DNA of 64,000 bases from positions 139,911 through 203,910 of IMG/VR virus record IMGVR_UViG_3300035670_000009; one strand, 5' to 3'. Under the pieces are notes generated by a model. It saw only the letters and a program-made list of their open reading frames with translations. It was not told where the DNA came from and made no database searches. Both the position numbers and the translations under genes were made by a program. Position 1 is the first letter of the stretch, and each line of letters begins with the position of its first letter. The DNA comes from a virus. Lineage: Duplodnaviria > Caudoviricetes. Shown here piece by piece: positions 15,232-51,383 of the stretch.

Positions 15232-15252
15232 GGTTTCAAACCTCCGTGTGAT

Positions 15253-16542: not shown

Positions 16543-16587
16543 GTTCTTCTCCTTTAGGCTCCACACGCTCTAACGCGCGGACTCCAT

Positions 16588-18045
16588 TCAAGTGATGTAA
16601 TTTTGCAGAACACAATGGTTTGCTGTCAACCAGCAATTTCCATATTTCTCGCTGAGGGTCGCGTAAGCCGCAATCTTATAGAAAGCGTACTGCCGCGCAA
16701 GTGCCGAAGCCGCGGGTTTATTATCGCCCGCCTCCTTGGCAAGAGCTGCAACCTGCACGTCGCGAAGCGCGCTATGGTAAGCGCGCTTTTCCACGGCTTG
16801 CGGTCGTACACTGTGCGTCATAGCTACCTTTTCAGCCCAGACCTGGACAGGCATTGCCGCGGCCGGAGCCGGAAGAAATGCGTTGTTTTCAAGCTCGCCC
16901 GCGGTGTCCGGGTCGTTTGCAAGTTTACTGAAAATGCTATCTAGCGCGCTAGTCACAGCGCGCACCAGGTTATCGCTCGCGGCTTTTACAGTAAGCGTTA
17001 AGAAATCGCGGACGGGGAGCACCACTCCCGCATCGGCTAGCGCGCGCAGGACCTGCCCGAATTTCACGTTCTCGCAAGGCGCAAAGTCGACCGGCGGCTG
17101 CGCGTTAGCCGTCGACGCCAGCGCAACTTGTGTCCAGGCGCGGGGGTCGTGGATTACCGCGCGCTCGGCCGCGGCCAGTTTTTCAAGTGCCGCGAGTTGG
17201 CTTTGCAGCTGCAGGCTGGTGGCAACACGATCGAAACCCAGCGGCGCTGTAACGCCCAGCTGTTCGGCCAACTCGGCCCCTGAGAGCACACCAGCGCTGG
17301 CTGCCTTTTGCAGAGTGCCAGAGATGTAGGCAATGCGATCAGCGGGGCGGAAAACGTGGCTGATGTCGAAGAACGTCGGATCGGGGTTGTCGGCGTGAAG
17401 GATGTGGCCGTCAGCGAGAACCCGCCCCAGGTTGTGTTTCAGCCCGCCCGCCTTGCACATGCCGCCATTCTCGACAGAGTCGCAATACTCTGCGCGCGTG
17501 CGAGCTTTGTTTCCGCAGCCAGAGCAAACGTCGAAAGGAATCTTGCAGGCCATCGAAACACCGATATCGTCGCCGCGAGCCAATTTCTCCGTTTCTTTGT
17601 CGGCGAGCAGGCCGCCGTTGCGCTCGGCAGCCTCCTTGCTGGCATTTAGCGCGCAGATCAGCTCGATCCGGTGCATTGGCTCGTTGTAGGCAGCGAGCTT
17701 CACAACGCCGTAGCTTTTGGCCGGGTTCTTGTTGAGATGGTCGCGGTAGAAACGCGCAAACTTCTCGAACGTGTGGTGGTGCTTGCGGCAGCAGTCGCGA
17801 GTGAAACCGTCGGCATTGCGGTTTGGGCCGTAATCTTCGGTGGCGCCGATCGCGATCATGTGGACCGGGATCTCGTCCGCCGCGAACTTGATGCGGCTGA
17901 GGCGCTCGGCGAAATCCACGCCCGCGCGTTTCACAAAAGCGTCCTTGTCGGCTCCCAGTAGGCCGCGGCTGGAAATTTTAATTAGCGACGCTACCGGCTC
18001 GCTGAAATCCTGCGAGTTCGGCTGGATGATCTTGATCATGCTCAT
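16588..18045 (-). CDS. Prohead (maturation) protease, HK97/assemblin-like, with Zn-finger
   Basis: NRNADGF..FYRDHLN..SYGVV..IGVSMACKIPFDVCSGCGN..EYC pattern gives candidate catalytic His and Ser. C-terminal half carries multiple K-x-A motifs. Position upstream of the scaffold. Confidence 0.7.
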   Translation of the reverse strand: MSMIKIIQPNSQDFSEPVASLIKISSRGLLGADKDAFVKRAGVDFAERLSRIKFAADEIPVHMIAIGATEDYGPNRNADGFTRDCCRKHHHTFEKFARFYRDHLNKNPAKSYGVVKLAAYNEPMHRIELICALNASKEAAERNGGLLADKETEKLARGDDIGVSMACKIPFDVCSGCGNKARTRAEYCDSVENGGMCKAGGLKHNLGRVLADGHILHADNPDPTFFDISHVFRPADRIAYISGTLQKAASAGVLSGAELAEQLGVTAPLGFDRVATSLQLQSQLAALEKLAAAERAVIHDPRAWTQVALASTANAQPPVDFAPCENVKFGQVLRALADAGVVLPVRDFLTLTVKAASDNLVRAVTSALDSIFSKLANDPDTAGELENNAFLPAPAAAMPVQVWAEKVAMTHSVRPQAVEKRAYHSALRDVQVAALAKEAGDNKPAASALARQYAFYKIAAYATLSEKYGNCWLTANHCVLQNYIT

Positions 18046-18054
18046 AGGAGTGCC

Positions 18055-18681: not shown

Positions 18682-18688
18682 GACTTCC

Positions 18689-20545
18689 TCAAATCATCTG
18701 CCGTTCGAGATTTTTTGTGTCCATCTGAGCTTTTGCAGTTTCGGCCCTGGCCTTCTCCATGTCGATGAGCTGCTTCACATCGAAGTCGGCCATCTGCCCG
18801 GACTCAAGCCGTTTGCGCAGCAGCGCTTGCATAGCGGCCGGGGAGTCAACAAACTGCGGCGCCACGTCTGCCAGCTCGTTGAAAGCCTGCGCCACCTCGG
18901 TTGGATCGTGGCCGGAGATCACCGGGTCGTTAAGCACCATATCGTGGAGCATGCTCTGTGCCCGGATGTTGCGCAGGGCCGTCTCGTGCTCCGGATCGGT
19001 AAGGCTCTGGTAGGCCTTGGTCTTCATCTTTTTCTCGCCTTCAGCCGCGCCCTGCGCCATTCGGCTGGCGATGGCCTTGGCCGCGCTGAGGAAACCGCTG
19101 CGCACCGGAGCAAGGCTAAAGCCGCCGCTTTCGCGCTCGCCGCCGCGGCTACCTTGTCGCCGCTGCCGACCAGAACGTGATGGTTGAGAAGGGCGGCCAC
19201 CGCCGCCAGAACCGCCACCGCCAGAACCGCCACCGCCAGGACCGCCACCGCCAGGACCGCCGCCTACTGGCCCCGCGTCTTCAAAGCTGTCGGGTTCCGC
19301 GCCCTCGTCTGAGTAATCGAGTTCGTCGTCTTCTGGAATTAGCGGCGAGCCGGAGTTTCGCTGTTGCTGCTGGCGCGCAGCTCGATTAGCAGCCTCGTGC
19401 GCCAGTTGCTCGGACCGCATCCGGTCGTATTCATCTTCGGGCATTGTTTCGTCCTGATGCACCCAAACAGGGTTGCCGAGCTTATTGTCAGGCATAACAA
19501 GTCGGAAATTGTCGCCCGGCGATGGTCGCCGATTGACAAAGTCTGCATGCGCTGCCGGGTCGACCTCAGTTCCCTTGTTGCCAAGCCGCGGCGCGCCTTC
19601 TTGCCCAGCGCGCGGCGGATCGACTAGGCCCCAGCGATCGCCAGCCGCCATGGCGCCCTTTAACACCAGCGGTTCATCGGCCGGGTTGTGCAGAATGCTT
19701 CCGGTGACGACCGCTGGCTCAGCTTTTTTTGCTGCGGCCTGCTTCGCCGCGGGCACCCGCGCCTGCGCCTCGTTGTAAGCTTCAAGGGCGCTGAGCACCG
19801 CGGCGGCCAGCTTGCAGGGCTGGCAATCGCCGATGATGACGTCCTTTGTGGCGGCCTGCTTGGTCAGGTGCGGGTAAACGGCGGCTAGCTTGTTAAGCAC
19901 GGTCACGCCGTCCTCGCCGTAGCGCAATTCGGTCTCGCGCACGGCGTCTTGAAAACTCAAATTGCCCGGACGGCGGAAATACTCGTGAAGCTCTTCCATC
20001 GCCGCCGCGGCTTTGCTGTAAGCCGCCGTGGCCTGACGACGAAGCTCTTCCTGGGCCAACTCTGCAGCCCGCTTCTCAGAGGCAGCCCGTCGAACGGCCG
20101 CTTCTTCGTCGCGAGGCGGAGGGACCCACGTCTTCTCGGGCAAAGATATCTTTGCAGCGGCCTCCTTGGACTGCGCGGCCTTGCGGCGCGCCAGCATTCC
20201 GGCAGGACTAACGGCGTAGTCGGCCGAAACCGCATGCGCGCTTGAAAGTTCAGCAGAAGTTTTCACCGCTTTGGGAAACAACGCGTCCATCACGGTGTCG
20301 GCGTCGGCCAGAGGGAAGTCGGCTGCCTTTTCCAGCGTGCTTTCGCCCTGCTCGCGTTGTTTGGTCGTGCGGCCCGTGTTGTAGGCGTGGACCATAAGAT
20401 TGATATGGCCCGCGGGAACGTCCGACTCGCTGGCGCTCTTGATGATCGCGGCGTTCGGAGTAAGACCGGCGTTCACGTAGCTGGCCGCGCGCTCAATCGC
20501 GCTGATCAGCTGTGCTTCAGCCTGTTTCGAAAGGGGCTGCATCAT
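18689..20545 (-). CDS. Large putative internal head protein
   Basis: 618 aa, Ala-rich coiled coil, with SKQAE, IKSAS, EKAAD, SKEAA, TKQAA and AKQAA. Central Gly-rich linker. Confidence 0.65.
   Translation of the reverse strand: MMQPLSKQAEAQLISAIERAASYVNAGLTPNAAIIKSASESDVPAGHINLMVHAYNTGRTTKQREQGESTLEKAADFPLADADTVMDALFPKAVKTSAELSSAHAVSADYAVSPAGMLARRKAAQSKEAAAKISLPEKTWVPPPRDEEAAVRRAASEKRAAELAQEELRRQATAAYSKAAAAMEELHEYFRRPGNLSFQDAVRETELRYGEDGVTVLNKLAAVYPHLTKQAATKDVIIGDCQPCKLAAAVLSALEAYNEAQARVPAAKQAAAKKAEPAVVTGSILHNPADEPLVLKGAMAAGDRWGLVDPPRAGQEGAPRLGNKGTEVDPAAHADFVNRRPSPGDNFRLVMPDNKLGNPVWVHQDETMPEDEYDRMRSEQLAHEAANRAARQQQQRNSGSPLIPEDDELDYSDEGAEPDSFEDAGPVGGGPGGGGPGGGGSGGGGSGGGGRPSQPSRSGRQRRQGSRGGERESGGFSLAPVRSGFLSAAKAIASRMAQGAAEGEKKMKTKAYQSLTDPEHETALRNIRAQSMLHDMVLNDPVISGHDPTEVAQAFNELADVAPQFVDSPAAMQALLRKRLESGQMADFDVKQLIDMEKARAETAKAQMDTKNLERQMI
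19199..19264. repeat. 15-nt tandem repeat encoding a (GGGG-S/P)n linker
   Basis: Units accgccaccgccag(a/g), about 4 copies. Translates on the minus strand as GGGPGGGGPGGGGSGGGGSGGG. Confidence 0.9.
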
Positions 20546-21474
20546 TATTCTCCCGGGAACCGTAGGTCCTGGATCAATTTTTGGTCGGTTAGTTTACCGC
20601 CAGCGGCGACAATCATCAGCTCGTCGTTGCGCAACTCTGCCGCTCTGTCATCGTAAGGTAACATTTTCTCGGCTGCGGATTCCAGTTTTGTCCCAATTCG
20701 GAACGGCAAGGCGCCCAGCATGGCGCCTATGTTCTCAACGATTGTGCTTTGTGCTTTCCCGGCGTTTTCGCTGGTTTTTTCGATCTGCACGTACTGTACA
20801 AAACTGTCAATAATCGCCAGCTGCGTGTGCGTGTTAATAGGCACCGTAAGCGTGGCGATAGCCGCTTTGTGCTTCACGGTGTTCACGGCAAAGTCCTGGA
20901 AGAACTGGCCGACGTCCTCGGGTCGTTCAGGCTTGGAAATAGGGCTGCACTTCGAAATAACCGACTCCAGCACATAGGGGCCGCCTTGGTAGCCAAAAAG
21001 CTTCCAGAGCAGGTCGTACTGTCGCTCAGACACGCCGCGAGTTACAGCGTCGGCCATAACTACGTTTACAACGTAAAGTTTGTCGTTGAGCCGGTCCCGG
21101 ACGTCGAAGAACACGTTCTCGTACGCCTCAATGATCTCGGAGTTGGTGCCGATCTTTGCGGCAATCTGCTGACTGGTCATTCCCGCCAGGACGCAAGCCT
21201 CTATGGCCCAGCGCATCGGGCTTCGTTCGTCGAGCCACATTGAATGCGCCCAAAACAAATCCCGGTCGTACTGGATCAGGCGGTACAGCGCGTCAGGTCG
21301 GTTGCCAGCCTTTTCGTAACGCCGCTTCATCCGCGACGCCCGGCGGATCCACGCAAAACCGGTTTCGCCGTCCGCGGCCCTGGTCGCCCGCGGACCGCCA
21401 GTGTCGATCTGAACAGCCCGCAGCCAACGCCAATTCGGCGCGCGGCGCGGGTTATCGCGAAGTGCTTGAAGCAT
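20545..21474 (-). CDS. Hypothetical protein with possible central HTH
   Basis: 309 aa containing VLAGMTSQQIAAKIGTNSEIIEAY, a helix-turn-helix-like pattern. Confidence 0.55.
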   Translation of the reverse strand: MLQALRDNPRRAPNWRWLRAVQIDTGGPRATRAADGETGFAWIRRASRMKRRYEKAGNRPDALYRLIQYDRDLFWAHSMWLDERSPMRWAIEACVLAGMTSQQIAAKIGTNSEIIEAYENVFFDVRDRLNDKLYVVNVVMADAVTRGVSERQYDLLWKLFGYQGGPYVLESVISKCSPISKPERPEDVGQFFQDFAVNTVKHKAAIATLTVPINTHTQLAIIDSFVQYVQIEKTSENAGKAQSTIVENIGAMLGALPFRIGTKLESAAEKMLPYDDRAAELRNDELMIVAAGGKLTDQKLIQDLRFPGE

Positions 21475-21869
21475 TAGCCCATCTTCGGGACTTCAATCGT
21501 CACCGAGAACACAAAGTTCTTGGCGCCCGAGCCCGCCGGGGTGATCTTCAGGTAAAGATATCTTTGTGGATTTGTCGGCGTGCCGTCTCGGTTGATATAG
21601 GCCACTTCAGCGCTGTGGTCGTCGACCTTGGCCGCCGTGGGCAGCGTGATGTCGAGAATGTGAAACGCCTCAGCGGGCAACGTGCTGTTTGGCGCAGTGT
21701 CCTGTTTGCTGGTGTAGAGCGCCGCAGCGGCACCGGCATTGGCGCCGCTAGTCTGTGTCAGGCTGTAGCCGCGAATAATGCCGCGGTGCGGCACGCGAAT
21801 TGGAACCACCGTCTGCGTGCCGCTCGCAGCTTCAAACGTCGTTTCGCCTGACCAAATCGTACTTGCCAT
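21474..21869 (-). CDS. Small beta-sandwich-like virion protein
   Basis: 131 aa with alternating hydrophobic beta-strand pattern (YLYLKIT, FVFSVTIEV). Confidence 0.6.
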   Translation of the reverse strand: MASTIWSGETTFEAASGTQTVVPIRVPHRGIIRGYSLTQTSGANAGAAAALYTSKQDTAPNSTLPAEAFHILDITLPTAAKVDDHSAEVAYINRDGTPTNPQRYLYLKITPAGSGAKNFVFSVTIEVPKMG

Positions 21870-21878
21870 GTTTCACCT

Positions 21879-24254
21879 TTAAGCGCTTGCGACATTGGAG
21901 AGGTCGGTGTCTGAGCCGCCTTCTTCTGGATACGGCTCAATCGTCTTTTGCTTGAGGAAGAGAATTACGTCGCCCAGCATTTCAAAGGCGTTACGCAACG
22001 AATCTTCCAGCTCTGGCATATCAGATTTGCCATAACGATCAGCGAACCGATCACCGTGCCAATAGAACATGAACAAAATGCGGCCCAGCTTGTCGAGGCC
22101 ATTGGTCAGCTCGCCCATATAACGATCGACCAACGAATCGTCCCGGACAGCGCGCAGCATCGAGCCGATCATCGCCGTGTCGAACACTTCTTTCTGGCCT
22201 GTCTCGGCGGCCTGCATCACGCTGCGGATATCTTTTTTGTCCAGTCGCGTGTTCGGGTTATAGATCTGCCGATCGGTGTTGGCGGCCGCCATGTCCGACA
22301 CCGGCATACCAATATCTATGCCCATTTGAGTTGGGACGTCGGCGCCCATGATTGTTTCGCCGCCCATCACCGGACCCGGATCGGTCGGCGCCGTTGGGCC
22401 CTGATTGACCATCATCGGCGCGCCGTACGGATTGGCATACTTCACGCGGCAAGCGAACTTCTTTTTTGCCGCCGCTGTCTTGAGGATCGCGCGAGCAGCG
22501 TCCTCACGCAGACCATGATGCTCAACAAGCGTCACCAGCGCGGCAATCGGGCTGCGCGCGGCTTCTTTGTTGATCGTGACTTCTGTGCCGTTGTGGTAGA
22601 CCTCGAGCGCGGCGGTCTTGCCTAGCAGTTCAAGCTGCGCGTCAGCCAGGTTGCCGGGCATCAGCGGCGGCATCTCGCTCTGGCCGCATCCGCACGCGCC
22701 CTGGTCCTCGGCCGTCTCATCGTCATCTTCGCCGGGAGCGCACTTGAGCAGCTTGTAGCCCTCGGGGACAAAAATGTCGCCCATCGAGCTGCGCAAACTG
22801 GAACCTTTCTTGCCGTTGAGATGGATCCGGACGCCGTCGCGCCACTTGTCGTAGTTCAGCGGGTCGGTATAGCAGCAGCTGGAGATGTGACCCTTTGGCG
22901 GAAACTTCGAATGGTCCTCCATGTGGACCTCGTAACTCGTCACGCCGAATTCGCTCTCGCCGTACTCGCGGATCACGCGAACCGGAACGGTGGCGTCGCC
23001 GTTCTTGTGCACCAACATGTAGCGCCCGCTCGACGGAAGGCTGTTTGCGTCTGGTAAGCCGTTAAACCACTCTTCTTCTTCCTTGTCGGTCGGGCAGGCG
23101 ACACAAAACACCTGGTCTGCGCGCGTGTTAATCCACTCAGGCTTGCCCTCGGTACGGACGACGGTGACAAAGTCCGAACGCTTCGCGGGCCCCATCGGGA
23201 ACATGGCGATGTAAACCCGCTCAATGTTGCCCGGCTTGACGAGGATGTCGTAAAGACCCGAGCTGGTCGGGTTCCAAAGTTTCTTTTCAACCTGAATGTG
23301 ATAGGGAATCGACACGTTGTCCCGCTCGCGCTGATCGAGAATCAGCACGCCGTCGCGGAGCAGCTTTTCCTGGTCTTCCTCGGTAGTCTCCGGCGGAAGC
23401 TTGGTCTGCATTGTGACGTTCATCGTGATGATCTTGAGCCCTGCGACGGCCGGGCTCTTTTCAGGTGCCTCCGACAGCACACTGGCGATCTTCGGGCGAT
23501 TTTCGCGTTCCTTGGCCGCCGCGATGGCTTCCTTGATCACGCCCAGGCCGTGAAACTCATCAAATGCCTTGGCCAGCGCCGGGGCGTCTTGGAACGTCTT
23601 GACGAGCATGTCGATCGTCGTGACGCGGGCTTCTTTAAGAAACCGCGGCAGATCTAACGCCCGGCCGATTTCCTGAAACACCAGCGCCGTGTTCATCGTG
23701 GCGCACTTAGCAAAAGTCGGCATCGCGGCCGTCATCATCTCGCGCAGCGTTGGCTTGGCCGAGCCAAACTTCGCCGGACTGCGAGAGAGCTGCGTGAAAT
23801 CGGGCTGCCGCTGGCCCATTGACGACCGATTGCGGTCCACCGCGCTGCCCAAAATGTTGGGCTTGCGGTTCACCAAGTAGTTAATCCAGTTTTCTTTAAG
23901 CGGCACGAACATGTCCTGGTTTTTGATGTACAGGAGTTCGTGACCTTTAAGGTCGCCGTTAAGAAAAAAGACTGGAGCATAAAGCCAATTCGAGCCAACT
24001 TTGAACGCAAAAACGCCAATAGCTTTGGTGTTTTCGCGATTGCGGTCTAGCAGCTGAAAACCGATTTCGTGGTCCAGCAGCCGCGGAGCTGAATCACGCA
24101 GATAGGCGTGCGCCAGGTTACTGAACGCCTGCTCAAACGACGTGGAGTCGCCTTTGCCGCCAAAATCGGCGGCTTTCGTTTGCGTCCGGTCGTGCAAACG
24201 TACTACGTTCAGCCAGTGCGCCTGGGACGATTCAGTCTTCTTGCGGTTGTACAC
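21879..24254 (-). CDS. Large conserved-type head protein with K-x-A motifs
   Basis: About 790 aa. Start reassigned to GTG 24254 (GGAGGT SD 7 nt upstream). Contains TKAAD, LKEAR, GKTAA, NKEAA and VKYAN. Confidence 0.65.
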   Translation of the reverse strand: MYNRKKTESSQAHWLNVVRLHDRTQTKAADFGGKGDSTSFEQAFSNLAHAYLRDSAPRLLDHEIGFQLLDRNRENTKAIGVFAFKVGSNWLYAPVFFLNGDLKGHELLYIKNQDMFVPLKENWINYLVNRKPNILGSAVDRNRSSMGQRQPDFTQLSRSPAKFGSAKPTLREMMTAAMPTFAKCATMNTALVFQEIGRALDLPRFLKEARVTTIDMLVKTFQDAPALAKAFDEFHGLGVIKEAIAAAKERENRPKIASVLSEAPEKSPAVAGLKIITMNVTMQTKLPPETTEEDQEKLLRDGVLILDQRERDNVSIPYHIQVEKKLWNPTSSGLYDILVKPGNIERVYIAMFPMGPAKRSDFVTVVRTEGKPEWINTRADQVFCVACPTDKEEEEWFNGLPDANSLPSSGRYMLVHKNGDATVPVRVIREYGESEFGVTSYEVHMEDHSKFPPKGHISSCCYTDPLNYDKWRDGVRIHLNGKKGSSLRSSMGDIFVPEGYKLLKCAPGEDDDETAEDQGACGCGQSEMPPLMPGNLADAQLELLGKTAALEVYHNGTEVTINKEAARSPIAALVTLVEHHGLREDAARAILKTAAAKKKFACRVKYANPYGAPMMVNQGPTAPTDPGPVMGGETIMGADVPTQMGIDIGMPVSDMAAANTDRQIYNPNTRLDKKDIRSVMQAAETGQKEVFDTAMIGSMLRAVRDDSLVDRYMGELTNGLDKLGRILFMFYWHGDRFADRYGKSDMPELEDSLRNAFEMLGDVILFLKQKTIEPYPEEGGSDTDLSNVASA

Positions 24255-24337
24255 AGCGGCCACCTCCGTGCGGCATTTTCAGGGCGTGTAAATAGCGATT
24301 TACCGCGCCGAGACCTCTACATCCTACAGAATCGGGC

Positions 24338-26212
24338 TTATGGGCGCCATCCGCTCGTTGCGCCAGTCATTCCAAAGGTTTCTCCGCGGGCCAGCCCTGG
24401 CACAAAGCTGCTGCCCGCGGTGTCGCTAGTTGCGCCCCGATGCACGCTGCTAAGCAGGCCGCGTTCTTGGTACGAGCCGAGCATACGCGTCATCCAGTCC
24501 GGGTCGTTCGAAATATTCGCCATGCCGCGAACCATTTCTGGCTGAAAAGGCGGCTGCTGCTTGTGCGCCTCGATATTGTTAATGCCGTATTTTTGCAGCG
24601 TATTAACGACGTTACGGCCAATTTTCGTGCCAATTGAATAGTGCAACACGGGCCGCTCCAAATAATGGCCCTGCAGGCTCTTGGGCGCGCCTGTCACACT
24701 GCCCGCGCGGGGTTGCCAATTTCGCTCGATCATCGAATATGGCACAACGTCGTCTGGGTTGTATTCGCCATGCTCGTCGGTCATACGGACGTGATTCACC
24801 AGCCCGCGCGCGAGCAGCTCGATGTTGCGGCGGTGGCCGTTGACGTTAGAGTTTTGAAGTACCTGCCGCATGGCTTGAACGAAATACCGGCGGCCCTCGC
24901 CGATGCCCTTGTGGCGCACCACTTCGGACGGATTAGGCATGCCGTCGGTGAGCGAGTCACCTGCCTCGATCTCCTGGCCCTTTTTGACGGTGATCTCGCG
25001 GTCCACCGGGATGTAGTGGTCCTGGCCGCCGACCTGGACGTAGTAACCGCCCTGGGGCGCCTCCTTGATCTCTTGGACGTGGCCGTCAACTTGGGCGTGC
25101 GTGGCGCCATTGGGGTATTTCTTGGGAACCTGGACCAACGCGTTGATCGCTTTGAAGCCGCCAATAGCGCTCGCGCCACCGACGCCGCCGGAATGTTTAG
25201 ACGAGATCTGCGCTTGGGTAACTGGTTCCGACAGAGCTTGCGCTGCGGCGATGCCAACGTAGTCGCCAATAGGCGGCATTTTGCCCTTCTCGCGATAGCC
25301 GACGTCTCTGGCGTACACGCCGCCGTCGTCTGGGCCGCCGACCAACGGACTGCGAACCAGCAGATCCTGCACGCCCATTCCTTTGATATCTTTCAAAATC
25401 TTCGGCGTCAGAACAGTATTGCGCTTGTATGGTCCGACGGGTCGGGCGAGCAGCGCGCCTTCGTTGTCCATGTCGTCGACGTCAGTGGGATAGCCGCGGT
25501 CGTGCGCGGTGGCATTGCGCTCCTGATCGTCGTCATCGTCGGCGGTGACGAGCAGCCGATGCGTCATTTGGCTGAGCTGCTTGCCGAAAAAACCCGCGTC
25601 CGCAGTAGCCGTCTTCAGGTCGAGCACGCCCTTGCGGGCGCCAAAGGCGCCCGCAAAATACTCTACGGGCCGTAAACCCTGGCCGTAGCCGCGCAGTACG
25701 GGAATAGGAATAGGCTCGTTTTTATGGTCGACGTACTGCAAGTCTGCGCCGATAAGTGAGTTGAGGCTGAACTTGTTTCCGCGGCTAACGCCGTGGACCT
25801 GGTGAGCCAGCGGGTTGTCCGTTGCCTTGGCTTCTTCGTAGACCTTTTCAACGAGGTCTTTTTGCGCGGTCGAGGCGAGCTGGAGCAGCTTGAGGTTACG
25901 CGTTTTCTCGTCGAGCGCGCGGTCGGCGAGAATGCCGCGGAGCTGCATCTGCACTTTGTGCTGCGCCTCCTTGGCGGCGACGGTCTGCTTGATGTCCTTC
26001 AGCCCGAACGAAAGACCACCCGCCGAATAAGACGTGTCGCGGGCCACGTCGTGAAGGTTCTTCATGACCTCCCGATACTTGTCGGGATGCTTTTCGGCGA
26101 GCTGCGTCGCGAGATTACCCATGTCTTTCTTAGTGAGGACGCGGTTGTAGTCGCGCAGATCTTCCGGCAGCGCTTCGTTAACGAGAATCTGGCCGAGTGT
26201 GGTTTTAAGCAT
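24338..26212 (-). CDS. rpoC: DNA-directed RNA polymerase, beta-prime C-terminal subunit
   Basis: Bridge helix YFAGAFGARKGVLDLKTATADAGFFGKQL and trigger loop AAQALSEPVTQAQISSKHSGG. N-terminus KTTLGQIL..SFGLKD matches the middle of bacterial RpoC. Confidence 0.93.
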   Translation of the reverse strand: MLKTTLGQILVNEALPEDLRDYNRVLTKKDMGNLATQLAEKHPDKYREVMKNLHDVARDTSYSAGGLSFGLKDIKQTVAAKEAQHKVQMQLRGILADRALDEKTRNLKLLQLASTAQKDLVEKVYEEAKATDNPLAHQVHGVSRGNKFSLNSLIGADLQYVDHKNEPIPIPVLRGYGQGLRPVEYFAGAFGARKGVLDLKTATADAGFFGKQLSQMTHRLLVTADDDDDQERNATAHDRGYPTDVDDMDNEGALLARPVGPYKRNTVLTPKILKDIKGMGVQDLLVRSPLVGGPDDGGVYARDVGYREKGKMPPIGDYVGIAAAQALSEPVTQAQISSKHSGGVGGASAIGGFKAINALVQVPKKYPNGATHAQVDGHVQEIKEAPQGGYYVQVGGQDHYIPVDREITVKKGQEIEAGDSLTDGMPNPSEVVRHKGIGEGRRYFVQAMRQVLQNSNVNGHRRNIELLARGLVNHVRMTDEHGEYNPDDVVPYSMIERNWQPRAGSVTGAPKSLQGHYLERPVLHYSIGTKIGRNVVNTLQKYGINNIEAHKQQPPFQPEMVRGMANISNDPDWMTRMLGSYQERGLLSSVHRGATSDTAGSSFVPGLARGETFGMTGATSGWRP

Positions 26213-27190: not shown

Positions 27191-30100
27191 TTAACTCTCG
27201 ACTATATGCACCGGGGTATCGACCTCAATCTCGCCTCGCCGATAGGCCTTAATGGCGTCCTGCCGTGACTTATATACCCGCGGCTTCGCGCGTTTGTCGA
27301 CCCGGCTGCTGGCCAGGTAAATCCCGGACTGAAACTCAGCCTGCGGAATATAGTGCGCTTTGAAGTTAGCCGCCGCAAACAAGTTTTTTGAGGGAAGCAT
27401 CTTTTCGACGGCTTCCTTTGCCGCGTCGTCCGTGCTAGGAACGTGATACTGCATCGCGTCCCCGTCGAAGTCGGCGTTAAAACCCTTGGTAATGACCGGA
27501 TTGACCTCCATCACCTTGTTCTTAGTGAGCTTTGGGTAGAAGGCCATCATACCGTATCGATGAAGCACCGGCGCACGGTTGATTACAATCGGCCGGGACG
27601 ACATCTGCCGCTCCAGCTCCGCGTGCGCCTCCTTGTTGCGGTCCTCGACGTGCTGGAGGGCCTGCATCCGCGGCAACCCCCGCCGCACCAAGCCGCGCAC
27701 CACGAACGGCTTGTAGACCTCCCAGGCTTTGTCCTCGGGCAGCGCCACCTCGTCCATGTCCAGGTCCGGGTTTGGCGTGATTACGGCGCGGCCCACCAGG
27801 TCGACCGTGGTGCCTAGAAGTTTGCGTTGAACGGTGCCGTACTTCGGCGAACTGCCGAAAATGTGCTTCAAGAATCCCTTGACCTGCCGCTCCTGATTCT
27901 TGGGCTGCGTCGGATCTCCCAGGCCAGAGACCGCCTTCATCGCGTCATACAGGCCGAGGCGCTCGTTGCCGTACTCCGCCAGGGCGCCGGAGGCGTCCTT
28001 CAGCGCGCTGTTTGAGTCGATCAACTCCTTGTACAGATAATTCGCGTCAGCCACGAGCGGGAGCTTCTTGGCGCCCATCGTCGAGACCGGCCGGAACAAC
28101 GGCGGCAAGACGGGCATCTTGGTGAGCATCCACTCCTGGGGATGAATTCCCTGGCTCTCGGCGGCCTTGAGAAAACCGAGCTTGCGCACGGCGGCGTCGC
28201 GGAGCGTTTTGCGGCCCGACTTAATGTCTTCTCGGCACTGTTCAATAGCCTTGGGAAGATTAATCCGGCCAAGCGCGTCTTTAATCGCGCTAGGACCCGA
28301 CTTGTCGAACAGCTGCGTCTCGCCCGCCAAGACAGAGCGAAACTGCTTTTCGGTAAGTCCCAAAACTCGACGAATTGGCTCTTCCATAACCGGATTGGGC
28401 ATCGGCTCGTGCAAAGATATCTTTGCCCAACGATTTCCGCCGTGTCCGCCGGTTAATTTCTCGTCGAATAGGCCGCCCGGAACTGGCTTCAATCGTCCTT
28501 TCCAGTCCACTGTTTCAGAACTGGTGATTTCTCGATCTTCAGCCAGCTGATCGACGTCTTTGTCGGCGATGGCCATGATGTGCGTTTTAGTACCGGTGCG
28601 GACAGTGTTAATGCCGCTGGCCCGCAATTGATTGACAAATTTCTCATAAACGTGCGGCACTTTGGGCAGCGGCGGCGTATAGCCCGACATGAACTGTGAC
28701 CAGTACTCGGGGTTGGCCTGCCCGCGGACCATCTTTGCGTCACGGATGACCTTTCCGGCGCCGTGGCTTAAAAGCGCGCCCAGGTCCAGCATGCCAACGC
28801 GCTTGGCGCCCTCCGAGCCGCCTTTAGCGGGAGTTCCTTCTGCCGTGTACGCGCCCATTGCGCGACCCTGCCCCTTAGACTCCGACGTGTGGTGAAGTTT
28901 CATAAAGAACCGGTGGCCGGTCAGCACGCCTTTGATCTTACGACCGGTCTCCGGATCAATGACGTCCTCAGTGTCGGAGAGGCCGTGCTTCCCAAGCTCG
29001 TTCTGCGCAAACGCAATGATGTCTTTTTCGCTGTCGAAGTCCTTTATCTTGAAAGGCTGTCCGGTTTTCGCGGCGACTTTACCCAGTGCAGCTTCGATAA
29101 CCTGAGAGGCATTTACGCGAGAGATCAGCCCCAGCGGCGAAACCAGAACCTCCATCGGGCTGCCGTCCTTGTCGTGCGGCATCTGGTGGTCCGGGACGAT
29201 GTCGGCAACAACGCCTTTGTCACCAAAACGCCCTGTAAGCTTGTCGCCCACCTGCATCTCGGCGGTGCTTTTCACGACGACCGACACGCCCTTATCAGTG
29301 TGCTCGACGTCAGTGACGATACCCGGCGAGTGATGATCCCAGGTGATCGTATCATTACTGAACGCGCCCGCGCGTCCGCGGTGAACTTTGCCGTAAGTGG
29401 TTTCCTTGGCTTTAGCCTGCAGCACCAGCGGGTCGCCGTAGTTGACTACGGTCCCCTTTTGAATAGCGCCCTTGTCGTCGAACTGGGCCAGCGTCTTCTT
29501 GTCGTACTCAGAGGGGAAGAGCGACACGAAAGCTTTCTTGCCAACGTGCGTGTTGTCGCTCCACTCAGCCTCGTGCTGGTACATGTGCTGGCTAGTGAGC
29601 TTCTTGGCCGCCGACTCCGAAATCACCACGGCATCTTCGTAGACCTTGCCCCTGAAAGGAAGGTAGCCAACGCGAAGGTTCTTGCCCAAAGCAGCTGAGC
29701 CCTGCTTGTCGGTGAAGTTCGAGTGCGCCAAAAGCTGCCCGGGCTTAATCGTGTCGCCCGGCTGCACAGCTGGCGTCTGGTGCCAAAAGGTCTTGCGGTT
29801 GAACGGCATGTCGTTGTAGAGATCGACTGTCGATTTGTTACCGTCTCGATCGCGGAGCACGATCTCGTCGGGCGACACGGAAACAACCTGGCCGTGGAAC
29901 TGGGCCTTCACGGCGCCAAGCTTTTCGCCCATCTCGTCTTCGTGGCTGATGCCGTCCTTGTCGACAACAGCCGACTGCACGAAGGGCGCTTCTGCGTCGT
30001 TCAAGGGCAGCGCTTGGGTAAACATGCGGCTGCCCATGATCGCGCGCTGGCCCTTAATCATGCTCTTGAGCGGCAGCATGTTCGAGAGCGCCGAGAAGGT

Positions 30101-31561
30101 GCTGTCCATGTGCGGCAGAGAATATTGAACCTCTTCCCGCGGCATGTACTTCATCTTGCCGCCCACGAGAGCCGCGACCATCGGCAGGTCGGTTTTCTCC
30201 TCGCCAGGAAACGCCACGGGCATGTCGGCCAGTTCGCCCGGCGTCTTGTATTCCTGCGCGCCGGTCTGCATGTTGCGCACCGGCGTATAGATCTTGCCGT
30301 CAGAACCCTTGACGGCGCCCCGCGCGAAGCGCATGTCGACGCCCGCTTTGCCCGACTCCGGCGTGCGCAGAAAATCGATGTAGCCAAGGTGGCTGGGCTG
30401 CACGGCGCGGGATTCCACCGGCACTGCGTCCAGCGAACCGATGCCGCCCTCGCCCATACGAGTCACGCGGTTCTGGTGGTCGAAGATTTCGGCCGGGTTA
30501 ATTTCTTCGAGCGAGCTGCCCAAGCCCGAGCCAATCAACGCAGCATTGATCGCCTTGTTGAAGAACCCCGTAGGCACGTGGTCAAGATTTTTCTTCGCCG
30601 TGGCCTTCCAAAGCAACTTGCGCAGCGCCTGCTTGTCTTTACTGAAGCGCTCAGCAATCAGGTCCTCGGGTCCGACAACGCTTTGATATGCCATTGCGTC
30701 GCGGTCGTCTGGATCGGCCTCTTTGCGATTAACGGCAATGAGCTTTTTCGTAATGTCGAGAATCGCTTCGGGGGTAAGGTTCTTGTATTCCTTGCCAAGA
30801 GTGCGCCGCGTAACGTCGGGGTCGAGTTCCATGCGGGCAAACTCTGTCGCAATAGCTTGCTGCTTAGCGGCCGCGTCCAATCCCGGAGTTTGCTTGTAAA
30901 CAAGTCGCTGGTAGAGCTTGTCGAGAGTGCCCGCGTCGCCCTTCTCCATGTTGACGGCGGTGATCTCGTTGCCCCAAGCGCCGCGGATATCGGCATCTTT
31001 GGCGCCGAGCGCTTTGAGCAGCGGCATCAGCGGAATCTGGGCCTGGCCAATGTTAATTTTCATCACGCCGGTCTTCGGGTCGAGGAAGTACCGGTGCATG
31101 CGTCCCTTGCCGGGCAGCACGTTAACGTGCGCCTCCAGCTCGCCGTTGTCTTTCTCGCGCGTGTAGACGCCCGCCTTGAGCCGCATCTGGTGGGCCAGGG
31201 TGTACTCGACGCCCCGGTTCACAAACGTGCCCGAGTCAGTGAGGTACGGCACGTGCGCAATCGTCTGCTGACGTTTGGCGATCGGCTGCCCGGTGGCGTT
31301 GTCGATTAAATTCCAAGTGCCGGTGAGCCGCCGGTGCAACGAGTTTCCGGTAAGAACGGCCCGTTTTTGATCGCGCTTGTTGTAGCGCTCCGGCCCCGTG
31401 TAATTCACGTCCGAAAGTTGGAGCGTGTAGAGATCGTTTTTGATCGGCTCGATCGCGCTGGCGCTTTGGAGCGCGCGATCAAAAATGCCGGAACGCAGCG
31501 CGTGGATGTCACCAAATGCGCGGTGTTGCGGCGGCGTTTGCCCGAGAATCGAGTCTGGCAT
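27191..31561 (-). CDS. rpoB: DNA-directed RNA polymerase, beta subunit fused to beta-prime N-terminal half
   Basis: Beta motifs: TDSGTFV, HQNRVTRMGEGG, RTPESG, QRAIMGSRM, YEDAVVISE, GDKLTGRFGDKGVV, MKLHH. Beta-prime motifs follow: PVLPPLFRP, GRAVI, NRAPVLHR and catalytic GFNADFDGD. Confidence 0.96.
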   Translation of the reverse strand: MPDSILGQTPPQHRAFGDIHALRSGIFDRALQSASAIEPIKNDLYTLQLSDVNYTGPERYNKRDQKRAVLTGNSLHRRLTGTWNLIDNATGQPIAKRQQTIAHVPYLTDSGTFVNRGVEYTLAHQMRLKAGVYTREKDNGELEAHVNVLPGKGRMHRYFLDPKTGVMKINIGQAQIPLMPLLKALGAKDADIRGAWGNEITAVNMEKGDAGTLDKLYQRLVYKQTPGLDAAAKQQAIATEFARMELDPDVTRRTLGKEYKNLTPEAILDITKKLIAVNRKEADPDDRDAMAYQSVVGPEDLIAERFSKDKQALRKLLWKATAKKNLDHVPTGFFNKAINAALIGSGLGSSLEEINPAEIFDHQNRVTRMGEGGIGSLDAVPVESRAVQPSHLGYIDFLRTPESGKAGVDMRFARGAVKGSDGKIYTPVRNMQTGAQEYKTPGELADMPVAFPGEEKTDLPMVAALVGGKMKYMPREEVQYSLPHMDSTFSALSNMLPLKSMIKGQRAIMGSRMFTQALPLNDAEAPFVQSAVVDKDGISHEDEMGEKLGAVKAQFHGQVVSVSPDEIVLRDRDGNKSTVDLYNDMPFNRKTFWHQTPAVQPGDTIKPGQLLAHSNFTDKQGSAALGKNLRVGYLPFRGKVYEDAVVISESAAKKLTSQHMYQHEAEWSDNTHVGKKAFVSLFPSEYDKKTLAQFDDKGAIQKGTVVNYGDPLVLQAKAKETTYGKVHRGRAGAFSNDTITWDHHSPGIVTDVEHTDKGVSVVVKSTAEMQVGDKLTGRFGDKGVVADIVPDHQMPHDKDGSPMEVLVSPLGLISRVNASQVIEAALGKVAAKTGQPFKIKDFDSEKDIIAFAQNELGKHGLSDTEDVIDPETGRKIKGVLTGHRFFMKLHHTSESKGQGRAMGAYTAEGTPAKGGSEGAKRVGMLDLGALLSHGAGKVIRDAKMVRGQANPEYWSQFMSGYTPPLPKVPHVYEKFVNQLRASGINTVRTGTKTHIMAIADKDVDQLAEDREITSSETVDWKGRLKPVPGGLFDEKLTGGHGGNRWAKISLHEPMPNPVMEEPIRRVLGLTEKQFRSVLAGETQLFDKSGPSAIKDALGRINLPKAIEQCREDIKSGRKTLRDAAVRKLGFLKAAESQGIHPQEWMLTKMPVLPPLFRPVSTMGAKKLPLVADANYLYKELIDSNSALKDASGALAEYGNERLGLYDAMKAVSGLGDPTQPKNQERQVKGFLKHIFGSSPKYGTVQRKLLGTTVDLVGRAVITPNPDLDMDEVALPEDKAWEVYKPFVVRGLVRRGLPRMQALQHVEDRNKEAHAELERQMSSRPIVINRAPVLHRYGMMAFYPKLTKNKVMEVNPVITKGFNADFDGDAMQYHVPSTDDAAKEAVEKMLPSKNLFAAANFKAHYIPQAEFQSGIYLASSRVDKRAKPRVYKSRQDAIKAYRRGEIEVDTPVHIVES

Positions 31562-36383: not shown

Positions 36384-37193
36384 TCAATTCTTGGGTACGA
36401 GGATGTACGGCTTTCCGTTGATCACAATGGTGCCGCCCAGCTCAACTGAAGTGTCTTTGAACTTGGAATACGGCACCTTACGTTTGCCGTACAGCTCCTG
36501 AATCTCGCGGACATCGCCGTCCTGTGGTTCAGTAACGTTCGGGTCGTAGTAAGGGGCCATAAGGTTGCCGTTGGCCAGGTGCGGCAGACCCAACGCATGA
36601 CCAAGCTCGTGGCAAATCACAGCCACAGCCATATTGAAGTTCCAGTGCTCAGCTTCGTCGTACATCTGGTCAAGCTGAATGCCCTCATGTACGCCGCAGG
36701 GCAGCTCGCTCCAGGCAAGCGTGCCGCCCTTGCTATCCAGGCCGTGCTTCTGCCCTTTTCCCGATCGCGCCAAAATATTGGCTTTCGTTGGATCCTCGAC
36801 GGGCTCGGGCTCGATGTTGCACACGCGCGCCCACTGGCTGAACGCAATATCAAACGCCTGCTTAGCCTGAGCCGTCGTGATGCCGGGCAGCACAATGTCG
36901 GGATGGTAAGTGATCGCCTTGTGCGGCCACTTGCACTCCGTGTCGCCTGCCGAAAAGTTGAAATCGGGCAGGCCGCAACGACGACGTTCAAGCACATGCG
37001 CCGTGGTTTCGTCGACGCGGCCATCCGGATCCAGCCCGTGAAAACGCTGGTACTCGCGAATGGCGCGCGTCAATTCCGCGCCTTTAATCTGCCGAACCTT
37101 TGCCCAGGTTTTAGTACCGAAGTATCCGAACGCGAATAGTTTTCGAAGGATCTCTTCGGTCGGCAGAACGTGATTTGATGGCATCCTTGCCAT
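36384..37193 (-). CDS. Matrixin (M10/MMP-like) zinc metallopeptidase with PG-binding-like prodomain and cysteine switch
   Basis: AIREYQRFHGLDPDGRVDETT (PG-binding-like), RRCGLPD (Cys switch), KW...ITY, HELGHALGLPH, Met-turn LMAPYY and IQELYG. Confidence 0.9.
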   Translation of the reverse strand: MARMPSNHVLPTEEILRKLFAFGYFGTKTWAKVRQIKGAELTRAIREYQRFHGLDPDGRVDETTAHVLERRRCGLPDFNFSAGDTECKWPHKAITYHPDIVLPGITTAQAKQAFDIAFSQWARVCNIEPEPVEDPTKANILARSGKGQKHGLDSKGGTLAWSELPCGVHEGIQLDQMYDEAEHWNFNMAVAVICHELGHALGLPHLANGNLMAPYYDPNVTEPQDGDVREIQELYGKRKVPYSKFKDTSVELGGTIVINGKPYILVPKN

Positions 37194-38066: not shown

Positions 38067-39101
38067 CTAATACCCGCGGAAAAGTGGCGGCATAGCCGCA
38101 TGCATCATCCCGCCCCAAAGACCCAAATCCTGGAGCTTATGTTGTGTTGCAGGAGGCAGCACCGCCAGCGCTGAAAGCGTCCGCCCGGCGACGTTAGCCG
38201 TCGCCATTCCGACACCGGCCGAGGCAAAGCCCCGGACCACGTCGATCGGGCGAATCATGGGGGACTGCAACCCCGTGCTAATGCCGCTCATCAATCCCGT
38301 CGCGGCAGCAGCGAGCGGGGGCGGCGTGTGCTGACCAAACGGCCCGTAAGGATCAATCATGCCCTTGTGCACGTCACGCCACAGCGCCGTGTTGAACTGC
38401 GGCACAGAGATTGTCGGCTGATTTATGCCCACGGCGTCAGGAACCATCGGATTAGCTGGATTAAAACCGTAGTTGACGACGTAGCTTTCCTTTTCGAACG
38501 GATACACAACAGGTGTGTCGTTACTGGTTATCAGACTTTTCAAGTAGGGGCGCTTCAGAGCTTGCGCATTGGCGTAGGCGTTCAGCGCGCCCACTCCCAA
38601 GCCAGTTCCGGCACCCAGGAGGCCAAGTGTTTTACTTAACCGGCCGCGGCGCCTAGCTCGCTCTGGAAACAGACGCTCAGCAAGCGCGCCGGTGCCGTAA
38701 CCCAGGCCGCCCAGCATCAGCGCCGAAACAATGCCGTTTGAGAGCGGTGTCGGACCGCCCAGCGCAGCGTTGCCCAGCTCGAAGACGTGCTTTGCGCCAG
38801 GGAGCGCCGCCTGCTTGATAAGAATCTCGCGCTCCAGGTTCGGCGCCTGGCAGTTGCGCACGAAACCATAGTCGCCCAGATGCTCTCGGTAAATCGCGGC
38901 GTTTTTCTCAGGGAGCGGCGCCTTTGTCCAGAGCGTAATCGTGTTGCACTCGGCCATCCATGTCGCGACGGCCAGCGGAAGAATATCGGCAGCCAGCGCC
39001 GCTTTCTCGTGCGCAACGCGTGCCCGAGCCGCCGCAGGCAGCAGCTCGGCCACCCGCGCAGGGACCGCCTCCCACGCATAGATATCTTTGGCTGCCGTCA
39101 T
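38067..39101 (-). CDS. Putative internal head protein with glycine-zipper segments
   Basis: HEKAAL and IKQAAL motifs. Hydrophobic Gly-rich helices (ALMLGGLGYGTGALA; LGLLGAGTGLGVGAL). Confidence 0.65.
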   Translation of the reverse strand: MTAAKDIYAWEAVPARVAELLPAAARARVAHEKAALAADILPLAVATWMAECNTITLWTKAPLPEKNAAIYREHLGDYGFVRNCQAPNLEREILIKQAALPGAKHVFELGNAALGGPTPLSNGIVSALMLGGLGYGTGALAERLFPERARRRGRLSKTLGLLGAGTGLGVGALNAYANAQALKRPYLKSLITSNDTPVVYPFEKESYVVNYGFNPANPMVPDAVGINQPTISVPQFNTALWRDVHKGMIDPYGPFGQHTPPPLAAAATGLMSGISTGLQSPMIRPIDVVRGFASAGVGMATANVAGRTLSALAVLPPATQHKLQDLGLWGGMMHAAMPPLFRGY

Positions 39102-39107
39102 GGCTGC

Positions 39108-39371
39108 TCACGCAAAAACAGATTTAATGAACTTCCAGGCGCTACGGCACAGAACGTAGACCCAAAGTACCACACCGGATAACGCCAAGAACACCATCAC
39201 AGGAATAGTGACGACCGCCACGCCCAGTTTCTGTTTGTCGATCTGCCGCAGCAAAAACAACGCTTTGAGCCAGGCAGCGCGGGCTGGATTCGCCACGTCG
39301 TCGGGCGCTGGGACTGGCGGCGTCGGGGACGGCTCGTCGGGCTTTTTGGGCTTCCAGGGAAACCAGGGCAT
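39108..39371 (-). CDS. Small membrane protein
   Basis: 87 aa with a long C-terminal hydrophobic stretch. Confidence 0.65.
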   Translation of the reverse strand: MPWFPWKPKKPDEPSPTPPVPAPDDVANPARAAWLKALFLLRQIDKQKLGVAVVTIPVMVFLALSGVVLWVYVLCRSAWKFIKSVFA

Positions 39372-39373
39372 GT

Positions 39374-40507
39374 TTATTTCCTTCCGGGGGAGAACTGCGC
39401 CAGCACGTCGTCGCCGTAACGAGCGATGACCTGGTCAATGAGGTTGGGGCGCTCCGTCTGGCCGCGAATGGCTTTCAGTGCAAGCTGGTGCCGATAGCGC
39501 GGGTCAAGCTGCGCCCGCCACATTTTGTGATTTCGATCGCTGTCGCGGATGAAGTCGCCCCGACGCTTGGCCTCGGTGAGCTGGCTCTTGATGTTCTCGA
39601 AAACCGGCTTGCTGGGGTCGTAAGGAATCGGCTTCTGGATAGCGAGCGGGTCAAGCATCTGTCGCCCCTGATCGAGGTAGACGCTGCCGCCGTCCTTCTC
39701 TAGTTGCTGGATTTTTTTGTAGTAGGCCGGTTCTTCGGACAAGTGATCCTTGGCAATTTCTTTGGCGACTTCTGCATTGTTCGTGTGTTCGCGCTCATGC
39801 TTCTTGCCTTCTGCCAAGGCCTCCGGTGGAAACTGCTCATCGGGCACATGATCCGCCTGGCCGCCGGGCAAGACGTCCAGGACTTTTTCAGCCGCCGCCT
39901 TCAGCTCGCCCCGGCTGGTGGCCGAGTCAAACTTGCTAACGTTGTTGTTACCGAGCACCTTCGCGCGTCGGACAGCCACCGTGATGTGGAACTGATGATC
40001 GCCATTGGGCAGAGCTGACAAACCGTAGCTCTTACGCAAAGCGGCCAACTCTGGGCTGGCGACTTGAATCGCCCAGACGCGGCTGATGCCGTCGATGTTC
40101 TTAGGCGCGAGTTCTTTAACGGGACCAAGGGCGTAGTGAAAATTGTGCCCGCGCTCGTTGATCTTGTTCGCGCCAATTTTGCTGACCTCGTCAGCGGTCA
40201 TCACCGAAATGTGCGCATTCAGCAAATCTGGCTTTACGTCTGGAACGTTAAGGGCACCAGCAAGTGGTAATTCAGCGCCTGGAGCAGTCATGGCGTCGAA
40301 TACGCCGCGCACCAGGGCATTTGGGACCGACAGCAACAGCCAGCCGCTTTTAGAGACGTACAGCCGCCCGGCGAGATAGTGATTGGTCGTCGCCGCGGCA
40401 CCGGTCTTTGAAAGCCAACCGGCCGCGTTTCCAACGGCATAGGCCGGATGAAGCTTGAAACCGGTCGCGTCCCACGCCAAAGGATCGAGAATGGAAAACC
40501 CGTCCAT
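39374..40507 (-). CDS. 2H phosphoesterase fused to an EHT..DHL..YY domain
   Basis: Two H-x-(S/T) motifs (NAHISV, QFHITV) with intervening SPELAALRKSYGL. Then EGKKHEREHTNNAEVAKEIAKDHLSEEPAYYKKI. Confidence 0.75.
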   Translation of the reverse strand: MDGFSILDPLAWDATGFKLHPAYAVGNAAGWLSKTGAAATTNHYLAGRLYVSKSGWLLLSVPNALVRGVFDAMTAPGAELPLAGALNVPDVKPDLLNAHISVMTADEVSKIGANKINERGHNFHYALGPVKELAPKNIDGISRVWAIQVASPELAALRKSYGLSALPNGDHQFHITVAVRRAKVLGNNNVSKFDSATSRGELKAAAEKVLDVLPGGQADHVPDEQFPPEALAEGKKHEREHTNNAEVAKEIAKDHLSEEPAYYKKIQQLEKDGGSVYLDQGRQMLDPLAIQKPIPYDPSKPVFENIKSQLTEAKRRGDFIRDSDRNHKMWRAQLDPRYRHQLALKAIRGQTERPNLIDQVIARYGDDVLAQFSPGRK

Positions 40508-51257: not shown

Positions 51258-51311
51258 GACGCAAGCCCCAGCGAATGCGCCTGATCCGTCAAGCGCGGCG
51301 TAAGACAAAAG

Positions 51312-51383
51312 CTGCCCGACCAGGATTCGAACCTGGAACCTCACGATTAACAGTCGCGCGCACTACCGTTGTGCTATCGGGCA
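51312..51383 (-). tRNA. tRNA-Asn (GTT)
   Basis: Full cloverleaf TGCCCGA/TCGGGCA, D-arm GCAC/GTGC, anticodon arm CGCGA-CTGTTAA-TCGTG, T-arm CCAGG-TTCGAAT-CCTGG, discriminator G. CCA is not encoded. Confidence 0.95.

Follow-up and report, generated by a model that had tools for sequence, protein, structure and literature searches.

The 64-kb window analyzed here forms the end of a viral record of 203,910 bp (IMG/VR record IMGVR_UViG_3300035670_000009; Caudoviricetes), which is complete and carries direct terminal repeats. On its minus strand, an open reading frame (ORF) of 377 codons encodes a 377-residue protein (P0001) built around a 2H phosphoesterase domain. The ORF starts with an ATG at position 40507, carries a GAGG ribosome-binding site 9 nt 5' of that start and ends in TAA; it begins 10 nt downstream of the stop codon of a PAS-domain gene, and the following gene begins 2 nt past its own stop. 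The protein is a new member, in its shortest, minimal form, of a very large and already catalogued phage family. Its module junctions share with head proteins of the same phage a three-residue motif, K-x-A(-A/S), that appears to be new, and this sharing suggests that the protein may be cut up and carried in the virion.

2H domain and protein architecture

The 2H fold and the catalytic dyad of this protein are secure. The two catalytic motifs, AHISV and FHITV, the second followed by the conserved residues R180-R181, place the histidines H99 and H174 at a distance of 75 residues, as in a superfamily recognized by two His-x-Ser/Thr motifs some 70-90 residues apart. Both motifs had been read in the initial annotation, and neither histidine varies in the alignments made, which covered 28, 62 and 54 homologues and a 19-member set that includes remote fusions. 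Furthermore, the Pfam family 2H-SAK (PF22547) matches residues 97-182 with 41.3 bits, above its cut-off of 27.

Structural searches used a model of residues 1-200 (predicted local distance difference test, pLDDT, 69) as query against 48,161 PDB representatives. All 19 best rows were 2H enzymes, with low Z scores ranging from 4.7 to 2.7 (Acb1 4.7, LigT 4.5, CPDase 4.4). They comprised Acb1, archaeal and bacterial LigT, Deinococcus CPDase, CNPase, a Burkholderia phage phosphodiesterase and coronavirus ns2, together with poxvirus cGAMP phosphodiesterase, AKAP18, Usb1, rotavirus VP3 and ASCC1. Structural re-scoring of Foldseek candidates put Acb1 (7t26) first, with a Z score of 5.1 and a root-mean-square deviation of 3.4 over 102 residues, and a dozen other 2H classes at Z scores of 3.9-4.4. 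Foldseek itself returned weak rows only from the PDB (E ≥ 0.03), many of them 2H enzymes, and in the AlphaFold DB the best clusters carried the name 'Swiss Army Knife 2H' (E 3e-9 to 1e-6). By sequence, neither a phmmer search of the PDB nor a profile of 54 family sequences matched any solved 2H chain, and no Acb1 chain was retrieved even at E 10. The structural scores, tied as they are across 2H classes, are compatible with more than one subclass and hence substrate.

This metal-independent 2H phosphoesterase is the sole recognizable enzyme of the protein, and with its His-x-Ser/His-x-Thr dyad intact it is, judging from the sequence, very probably active. Enzymes of the 2H superfamily, acting on small nucleotides or on the ends of RNA, open or make 2',3'-cyclic phosphates or cut 2'-5' or 3'-5' phosphodiester bonds.

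The full-length AlphaFold2 model, built on an alignment of 62 homologues (mean pLDDT 71), resolves the remainder of the protein into short helices (residues 9-35), the alpha/beta domain (44-181), a disordered stretch (182-211), three helices (228-272), a weak spot (273-280) and the helical tail that had been noticed from the sequence. The leader ends in L-S-K34-T-G-A-A, a degenerate version of the family motif L-x-K-x-A-A, which is kept in remote relatives and, among 124 cluster representatives, precedes the 2H core in 91; we infer that residues 1-38 are a candidate propeptide or capsid-targeting segment. The two strings said to bracket the domain, LSKTGAA (32-38) and ELKAAAEK (201-208), are present. 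As K-x-A sites they differ: the downstream K203-A-A is strict, with K-x-A in 78 of the 85 sequences occupying that alignment column, whereas the upstream K34-T-G-A is not strict. Bracketing of the 2H core on both sides is nevertheless strong in the family.

DUF5661 (PF18905) matches residues 229-271 with 34.1 bits (cut-off 27), so that both family resemblances named in the initial annotation lie above Pfam cut-offs; a scan of the genome scored it at 37.6 bits and found a single copy. Its conserved residues are E238, E240, H241, T242, D254 and H255. A reading of this module as a mini-zincin, prompted by the string H-E-R-E-H, was rejected: relatives have D, Y or N in place of the first histidine (H237), and the model does not put the motif within a single helix. 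Pfam detected no peptidase family in the protein, including a built-in zincin (MPTase). The tail (287-370) matched no known family, and structural searches with the whole model were dominated by helical-bundle matches to the tail and were uninformative on its function. PHROGs gave an insignificant match only for the 2H protein and nothing useful for the head genes, and NCBIfam gave no match for the 2H protein.

Table 1. Coordinates, in the window, of the 2H gene, its parts and two associated genes.
Feature	Position	Strand	Basis
Complete ORF: leader, 2H domain, linker, DUF5661, helical tail	39374..40507	-	Reading frame, Pfam, AlphaFold2 model
N-terminal leader, residues 1-38	40394..40507	-	Helices 9-35, ending L-S-K34-T-G-A-A (model)
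2H phosphoesterase core, residues 44-184	39956..40378	-	Pfam 2H-SAK, structural search
Catalytic motif 1, H99-I-S101 (AHISV, 98-102)	40205..40213; H99 codon 40213-40211	-	Sequence
Catalytic motif 2, H174-I-T176 (FHITV, 173-177), then R180-R181	39980..39988; H174 codon 39988-39986	-	Sequence
Disordered linker 1, residues 185-211	39875..39955	-	pLDDT 33-39 (residues 182-211)
E-L-K203-A-A-A-E, sole strict K-x-A(-A) site of the protein; candidate maturation cleavage site	39887..39907	-	Sequence
DUF5661 module, residues 212-272, three helices	39692..39874	-	Pfam, model
C-terminal helical tail, residues 287-370	39398..39649	-	AlphaFold2 model; conserved within phage clade
Gene for 87-residue single-pass membrane protein, tightly 3' of the 2H gene	39108..39371	-	Synteny kept in relatives
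Putative S78-like prohead protease, 485 residues, long C-terminal extension; candidate processing enzyme	16588..18045	-	K-x-A enrichment, signature

Family, module exchange and the K-x-A junction motif

Homologues of the 2H-SAK type are distributed in phages only. A word-indexed search retrieved 451 proteins of similar length, many of them on ~200-kb contigs, and an exhaustive search with residues 1-200 identified 742 clusters (50% identity) at E ≤ 1e-3, 341 of which were recovered at E ≤ 1e-30. The constant part of the family is its N-terminus: a leader of ~35 residues plus the 2H domain occupies this position in 123 of 124 representatives, with the 2H core starting by residue 60 (median 38), and the sequence that follows varies, giving total lengths of 162-2913 residues. 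The copy studied here carries one enzyme, DUF5661 and the tail, whereas orthologues and remote relatives carry two to six modules. In a curated phage collection the sole match lay within a 2039-residue protein of Virus Rctr197k (KX853510; locus L081, 3706-9825), and no cultured relative turned up there. The Rctr197k protein combines DUF5661 with two InPase domains, three DUF7178 repeats and a further 2H domain, of LigT type, and its gene lies near one annotated as similar to a structural protein.

Variation concentrates at two insertion hotspots, the 2H-DUF5661 linker and the stretch between DUF5661 and the tail. In orthologues of the same clade, alignments and Pfam scans of the long members place a Cys-rich module, one or two NUDIX domains, a P-loop kinase and an acylphosphatase at the first hotspot, and a module of ~75 residues is found at the second. 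Across eight long relatives, Pfam scans placed NUDIX, AAA_18/SKI/AAA_33 kinases, His_Phos_1, LigD_N with DNA_ligase_A_M, InPase, SNF2 helicase and C39 peptidase; the remote members carry histidine phosphatase, LigD 3'-phosphoesterase with ATP-dependent ligase, InPase, SNF2 helicase or C39 peptidase, and SET and GNAT modules are known from precomputed annotation alone. One relative (P0187) is a portal fusion in which the Pfam scan found Portal_Mu at residues 82-472 and then 2H-SAK at 588-675; a second such combination (P0192) comes from precomputed annotation only.

An eight-cysteine module with a metallothionein-like look (Y-D-C-x-C-S-G-x-C-x-C-P-x-T-C-x-C-K) is inserted in linker 1 of P0009, P0019, P0021, P0045, P0094 and P0114. 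It stands C-terminal to the E-L-K-A-A motif, and a K-A-A motif follows it in turn. The ~75-residue module (H-S-D-N-K-R-Y ... Q-D-W-V-I-D-D ... T-H-T-P-T-K-F-R-F-H), which belongs to no family, occupies the second hotspot in P0024, P0027, P0029, P0053 and P0124, ends in V-K-A-A and also stands directly after the 2H domain in the short stand-alone members P0226, P0316, P0307 and P0299. A related 235-kb phage (G005) encodes a stand-alone 2H protein of 202 residues that retains a K-A-A-A leader. The 407-residue ORF adjoining it (L086, 2227-3450) has, by eye, an InPase-like N-terminal half and a HAD-like phosphatase C-terminal half, as if the modules had been split into separate genes.

The junctions between these modules are marked by K-x-A. 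Of 193 homologues, 145 have the motif in the 15 residues that precede the 2H core and 161 have it in the 30 residues that follow. The 15 residues preceding DUF5661 contain it in 110 of 161 proteins, and the 12 residues preceding the tail in 105 of 156. Inside the three conserved cores, only 106 instances were counted over 51,130 residues. Reversed and R/E control motifs were found in 0-2 of the 193 proteins at the junction upstream of the 2H core, the contrast being less clear at the other junctions. Flanking of the 2H domain persists among representatives at ≤50% identity (91 of 124 upstream, 100 of 124 downstream). In the 1007-residue orthologue P0124, six of seven K-x-A motifs, of the form L/K-K-T/A-A-A, fall exactly at Pfam domain boundaries, each junction of this protein having one, and short natural family members end just past the downstream motif.

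Head module, putative prohead protease and gene surroundings

Across the genome as a whole K-x-A is not enriched (observed/expected 1.09). The extended form K-x-A-[AS] is enriched only in five adjacent genes of the head module (window 14806-24263), the two strongest of which reach P values of 1e-5 and 4e-5 among 234 genes, and the enrichment is directional, with 60 K-x-A against 27 A-x-K in six head-region proteins. The protein richest in the motif is the putative S78-like protease, with 16 K-x-A against 4.5 expected and 5 A-x-K, and its orthologues (36-49% identity) contain 9-19 instances against 3-5 expected, many at aligned positions. This protein contains the string D-I-S-H-V-F-R-P-A-D, which we take to be the serine-protease signature of S78 (HK97-type) prohead proteases (D-I-S-x-V-x-R-P-A-D), and the protein atlas gave weak leads only, to S78 and S77. 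Among the other genes of the genome with an early K-x-A/G-A/S, no common N-terminal leader was evident.

Self-digestion and three-residue cleavage motifs are well documented for prohead proteases. That of phage SPN3US cuts at the three-residue motif A-x-E and strips N-terminal propeptides of 20-254 residues from ejection proteins (PMC10052503). Taken together, the junction motif, its enrichment in the head module and the K-x-A-rich protease make K-x-A a credible maturation motif and the 2H protein a credible substrate, which would place the latter within the prohead.

Dozens of ~200-kb contigs share, at 95-99% identity, a capsid-like protein of 308 residues (13242-14168, minus strand) that matches the HK97 fold weakly; divergence among the accessory proteins of these contigs is much greater.

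In this phage and two relatives, the 2H gene is the first of a conserved run that lies upstream of the RNA polymerase genes. The genes after it in the run encode a small membrane protein, a glycine-zipper protein of ~340 residues, further small proteins and an M10 peptidase. The 87-residue membrane protein and a 344-residue protein with glycine-zipper segments (38067-39101, minus strand) are invariably found 3' of the 2H gene in relatives, and neither matched the families searched. The peptidase, a matrixin-type M10 metallopeptidase fused to a peptidoglycan-binding domain (36384-37193, minus strand), sits in a lysis-like block and keeps its position in relatives; it may be the wall-degrading enzyme. 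The phage encodes a fused RNA polymerase beta/beta-prime N-terminal protein of 1456 residues (27191-31561, minus strand) and a separate beta-prime C-terminal protein (24338-26212, minus strand), whose closest cultured relatives, at ~32% identity, are those of Salmonella phage Arash and Vibrio phages D69, D181 and D148. A tRNA-Asn (GTT) gene (51311-51383, minus strand) is the sole tRNA gene found in the window.

Proposed role and comparison with known systems

We favor a reading of the protein as a minimal phage 'Swiss-army-knife' (polyvalent) 2H protein that is packaged, processed and injected, and that clears nucleotide signals or cyclic ends, and we give this reading as a whole an even chance. 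Expressed along with the late genes, the protein would enter the prohead, possibly by means of its conserved leader, and the S78-like protease would cut it there at K203-A-A and perhaps also at the degenerate K34-T-G-A. The enzyme would then enter the cell together with the DNA, and its likely task would be to remove, ahead of any phage gene expression, the nucleotide alarm signals of the host or the 2',3'-cyclic phosphates that host RNases produce. That the protein is processed, packaged cargo at all is, from its sequence, a proposition for which we see about equal grounds for belief and doubt. Release of a free 2H domain of ~165 residues, as first envisaged, is less certain than a single cut at K203, because the upstream site is degenerate. 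More tentatively still, K-x-A(-A/S) may be the cleavage code of S78-type prohead proteases in ~200-kb phages with their own RNA polymerase, marking injected cargo polyproteins of a beads-on-a-string type. Such polyproteins, which comprise hundreds of clusters and reach 2913 residues, would enter the prohead by their leader and 2H module, be cut into separate enzymes inside the capsid and be injected as a ready-made mix acting on nucleotides and RNA ends.

Several observations weigh against a packaged and processed protein. Its gene belongs to an operon of membrane and lysis-like genes, with ~20 kb separating it from the head module, and the conserved block around it consists of a holin-like protein, the PAS protein, small membrane proteins and the M10 peptidase. 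The studied copy holds one strict K-x-A against 3.3 expected from composition, its upstream site has one residue inserted relative to the K-Q-A of most relatives, and its third junction has no K-x-A. The motifs beside the 2H core could belong to the structure of the domain itself, and the homologues counted at the junctions are related to each other, so that the counts are not independent events. The protease, moreover, is identified by a short signature motif and weak atlas leads, and a conserved K-Q-A at residues 25-27 of the capsid-like protein says little, lying as it does within a stretch conserved throughout. Finally, the kinase and ligase modules of relatives favor nucleic-acid end repair over signal degradation.

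The last point bears on the alternative that the protein is an unpackaged, cytoplasmic RNA end-healing enzyme, made during infection, which clears the 2',3'-cyclic phosphate ends left by host anticodon nucleases or metal-independent RNases, its K-x-A motifs being linker or capping features. The Pfam family takes its name from, and originated in, work on RNA repair; among the modules of relatives are polynucleotide-kinase-like P-loop kinases, a histidine phosphatase, a LigD 3'-phosphoesterase and an ATP-dependent ligase; and the few K-x-A in the studied copy and the distance of its gene from the head module fit an unpackaged protein. We nevertheless consider this alternative rather unlikely. 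RtcB, RNA_ligase (Rnl2-type), NUDIX and Tpt1, which could complete a repair, were not found in the 204-kb genome, in searches whose positive controls were detected for RtcB and RNA_ligase; the search for RNA_lig_T4_1 (T4 Rnl1) was uninformative, its own controls having gone undetected. K-x-A, furthermore, also marks junctions that do not touch the 2H domain and is common to the head proteins, a portal-2H fusion exists, and 2H domains of polyvalent type do not associate with RNA ligases (Iyer et al., PMC5512222).

The absence of these four families argues, for this copy, in favor of signal or end clearance over complete RNA repair, and between signal degradation and RNA-end chemistry we see roughly even odds. 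The modules of relatives point both ways, the kinase, phosphatase, LigD-type phosphoesterase and ligase to nucleic-acid end healing, and NUDIX and InPase to nucleotide or ADP-ribose derivatives. A more specific assignment, as an Acb1-type anti-CBASS nuclease cleaving 3'-5' cyclic di- and trinucleotides, would agree with the first rank of 7t26 (Z 5.1) among solved structures, with a compact core of ~140 residues like that of Acb1 and with an HxS/HxT tetrad resembling the HxT/HxT of Acb1 (PMC9117128). It appears improbable, since LigT, CPDase, Usb1, MHV ns2, poxvirus cGAMP phosphodiesterase and BCSR5 phosphodiesterase all score within one Z unit, no Acb1 chain matched by sequence or profile even at E 10, and the counterpart of the C-terminal lid of Acb1 is here a disordered linker. 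An offensive RNase of Usb1 type, trimming or cutting host RNAs to leave 2',3'-cyclic ends, is among the two roles proposed for 2H domains of polyvalent proteins (PMC5512222), and Usb1 structures are among the tied structural matches. Nothing sets this 2H domain apart from other 2H classes, however, and the studied copy has no recognizable RNA-binding module, which makes such an RNase the most improbable of the roles considered.

The evolutionary behavior of the gene fits a role in conflict. Between genomes whose capsid proteins are 97-98% identical, identity is only 66-71% for the 2H protein and ~40% for its tail, and one complete relative genome lacks the 2H protein; such fast divergence and absence agree with a conflict role, and divergence faster than that of the capsid protein, combined with module swapping at two fixed hotspots, marks a conflict gene. 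The defences against which such a gene might be directed include CBASS, type III CRISPR, Thoeris and tRNA nucleases.

The initial annotation, which had proposed a virion-delivered anti-defence enzyme, is as a whole partly supported. A virion-delivered counter-defence role for the family is already predicted in print (PMC5512222), and the enzyme itself is no surprise, its family having been catalogued. What is added here is the junction motif, its link to the head module and an S78-like protease, the two insertion hotspots and the constant N-terminal anchor of leader plus 2H domain. Should the motif prove to be a genuine cleavage code, the sequence by itself would suffice to predict injected proteins in many uncultured jumbo phages, and polyvalent proteins could be processed by the capsid maturation protease, not by a built-in peptidase.

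Among known systems, Acb1 (T4 gp57B; phage FBB1 7t26, 7t27) shares with the present protein a compact phage 2H fold, two His-x-Ser/Thr motifs and a plausible counter-defence role. Unlike Acb1, a free protein of ~150 residues with a C-terminal lid, the 2H domain studied here is set within a modular protein with a leader and a disordered linker; it has no detectable sequence relationship to Acb1, and its structural score for Acb1 is tied with those for many 2H classes. LigT/ThpR and CPDase have the same fold, dyad and basic residue after the second motif, although the arginine spacing there is one residue off the LigT pattern. As in heal-and-seal repair pathways, relatives of the studied protein join 2H with kinase and ligase modules, whereas this genome provides no ligase or kinase partner.

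The gp53/gp54 proteins and the gp245 protease of SPN3US offer a precedent for a motif of three residues that recurs both in the protease and in head proteins, and for N-terminal propeptides on cargo (PMC10052503). The motif is A-x-E in SPN3US and K-x-A here, and the present putative protease appears S78-like and not T4 gp21-like.

Another parallel is with the polyvalent proteins. In the survey of Iyer et al. (2017; PMC5512222), 2H and InPase belong to the domains restricted to polyvalent proteins of phage type; these authors predicted packaging and injection for the phage 2H members and proposed that their 2H domains act as RNases or as degraders of 2'-5' or cyclic nucleotide signals. The studied copy differs from these proteins in being minimal, with neither a second enzyme nor a zincin (MPTase) for self-processing, and in the K-x-A(-A/S) junctions it shares with head proteins, which are not described in that work. 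It resembles them in its score above the 2H-SAK family cut-off, in the N-terminal 2H domain followed in homologues by variable effector modules, in its restriction to phages, in the portal fusion among its relatives and in the same predicted packaging and injection.

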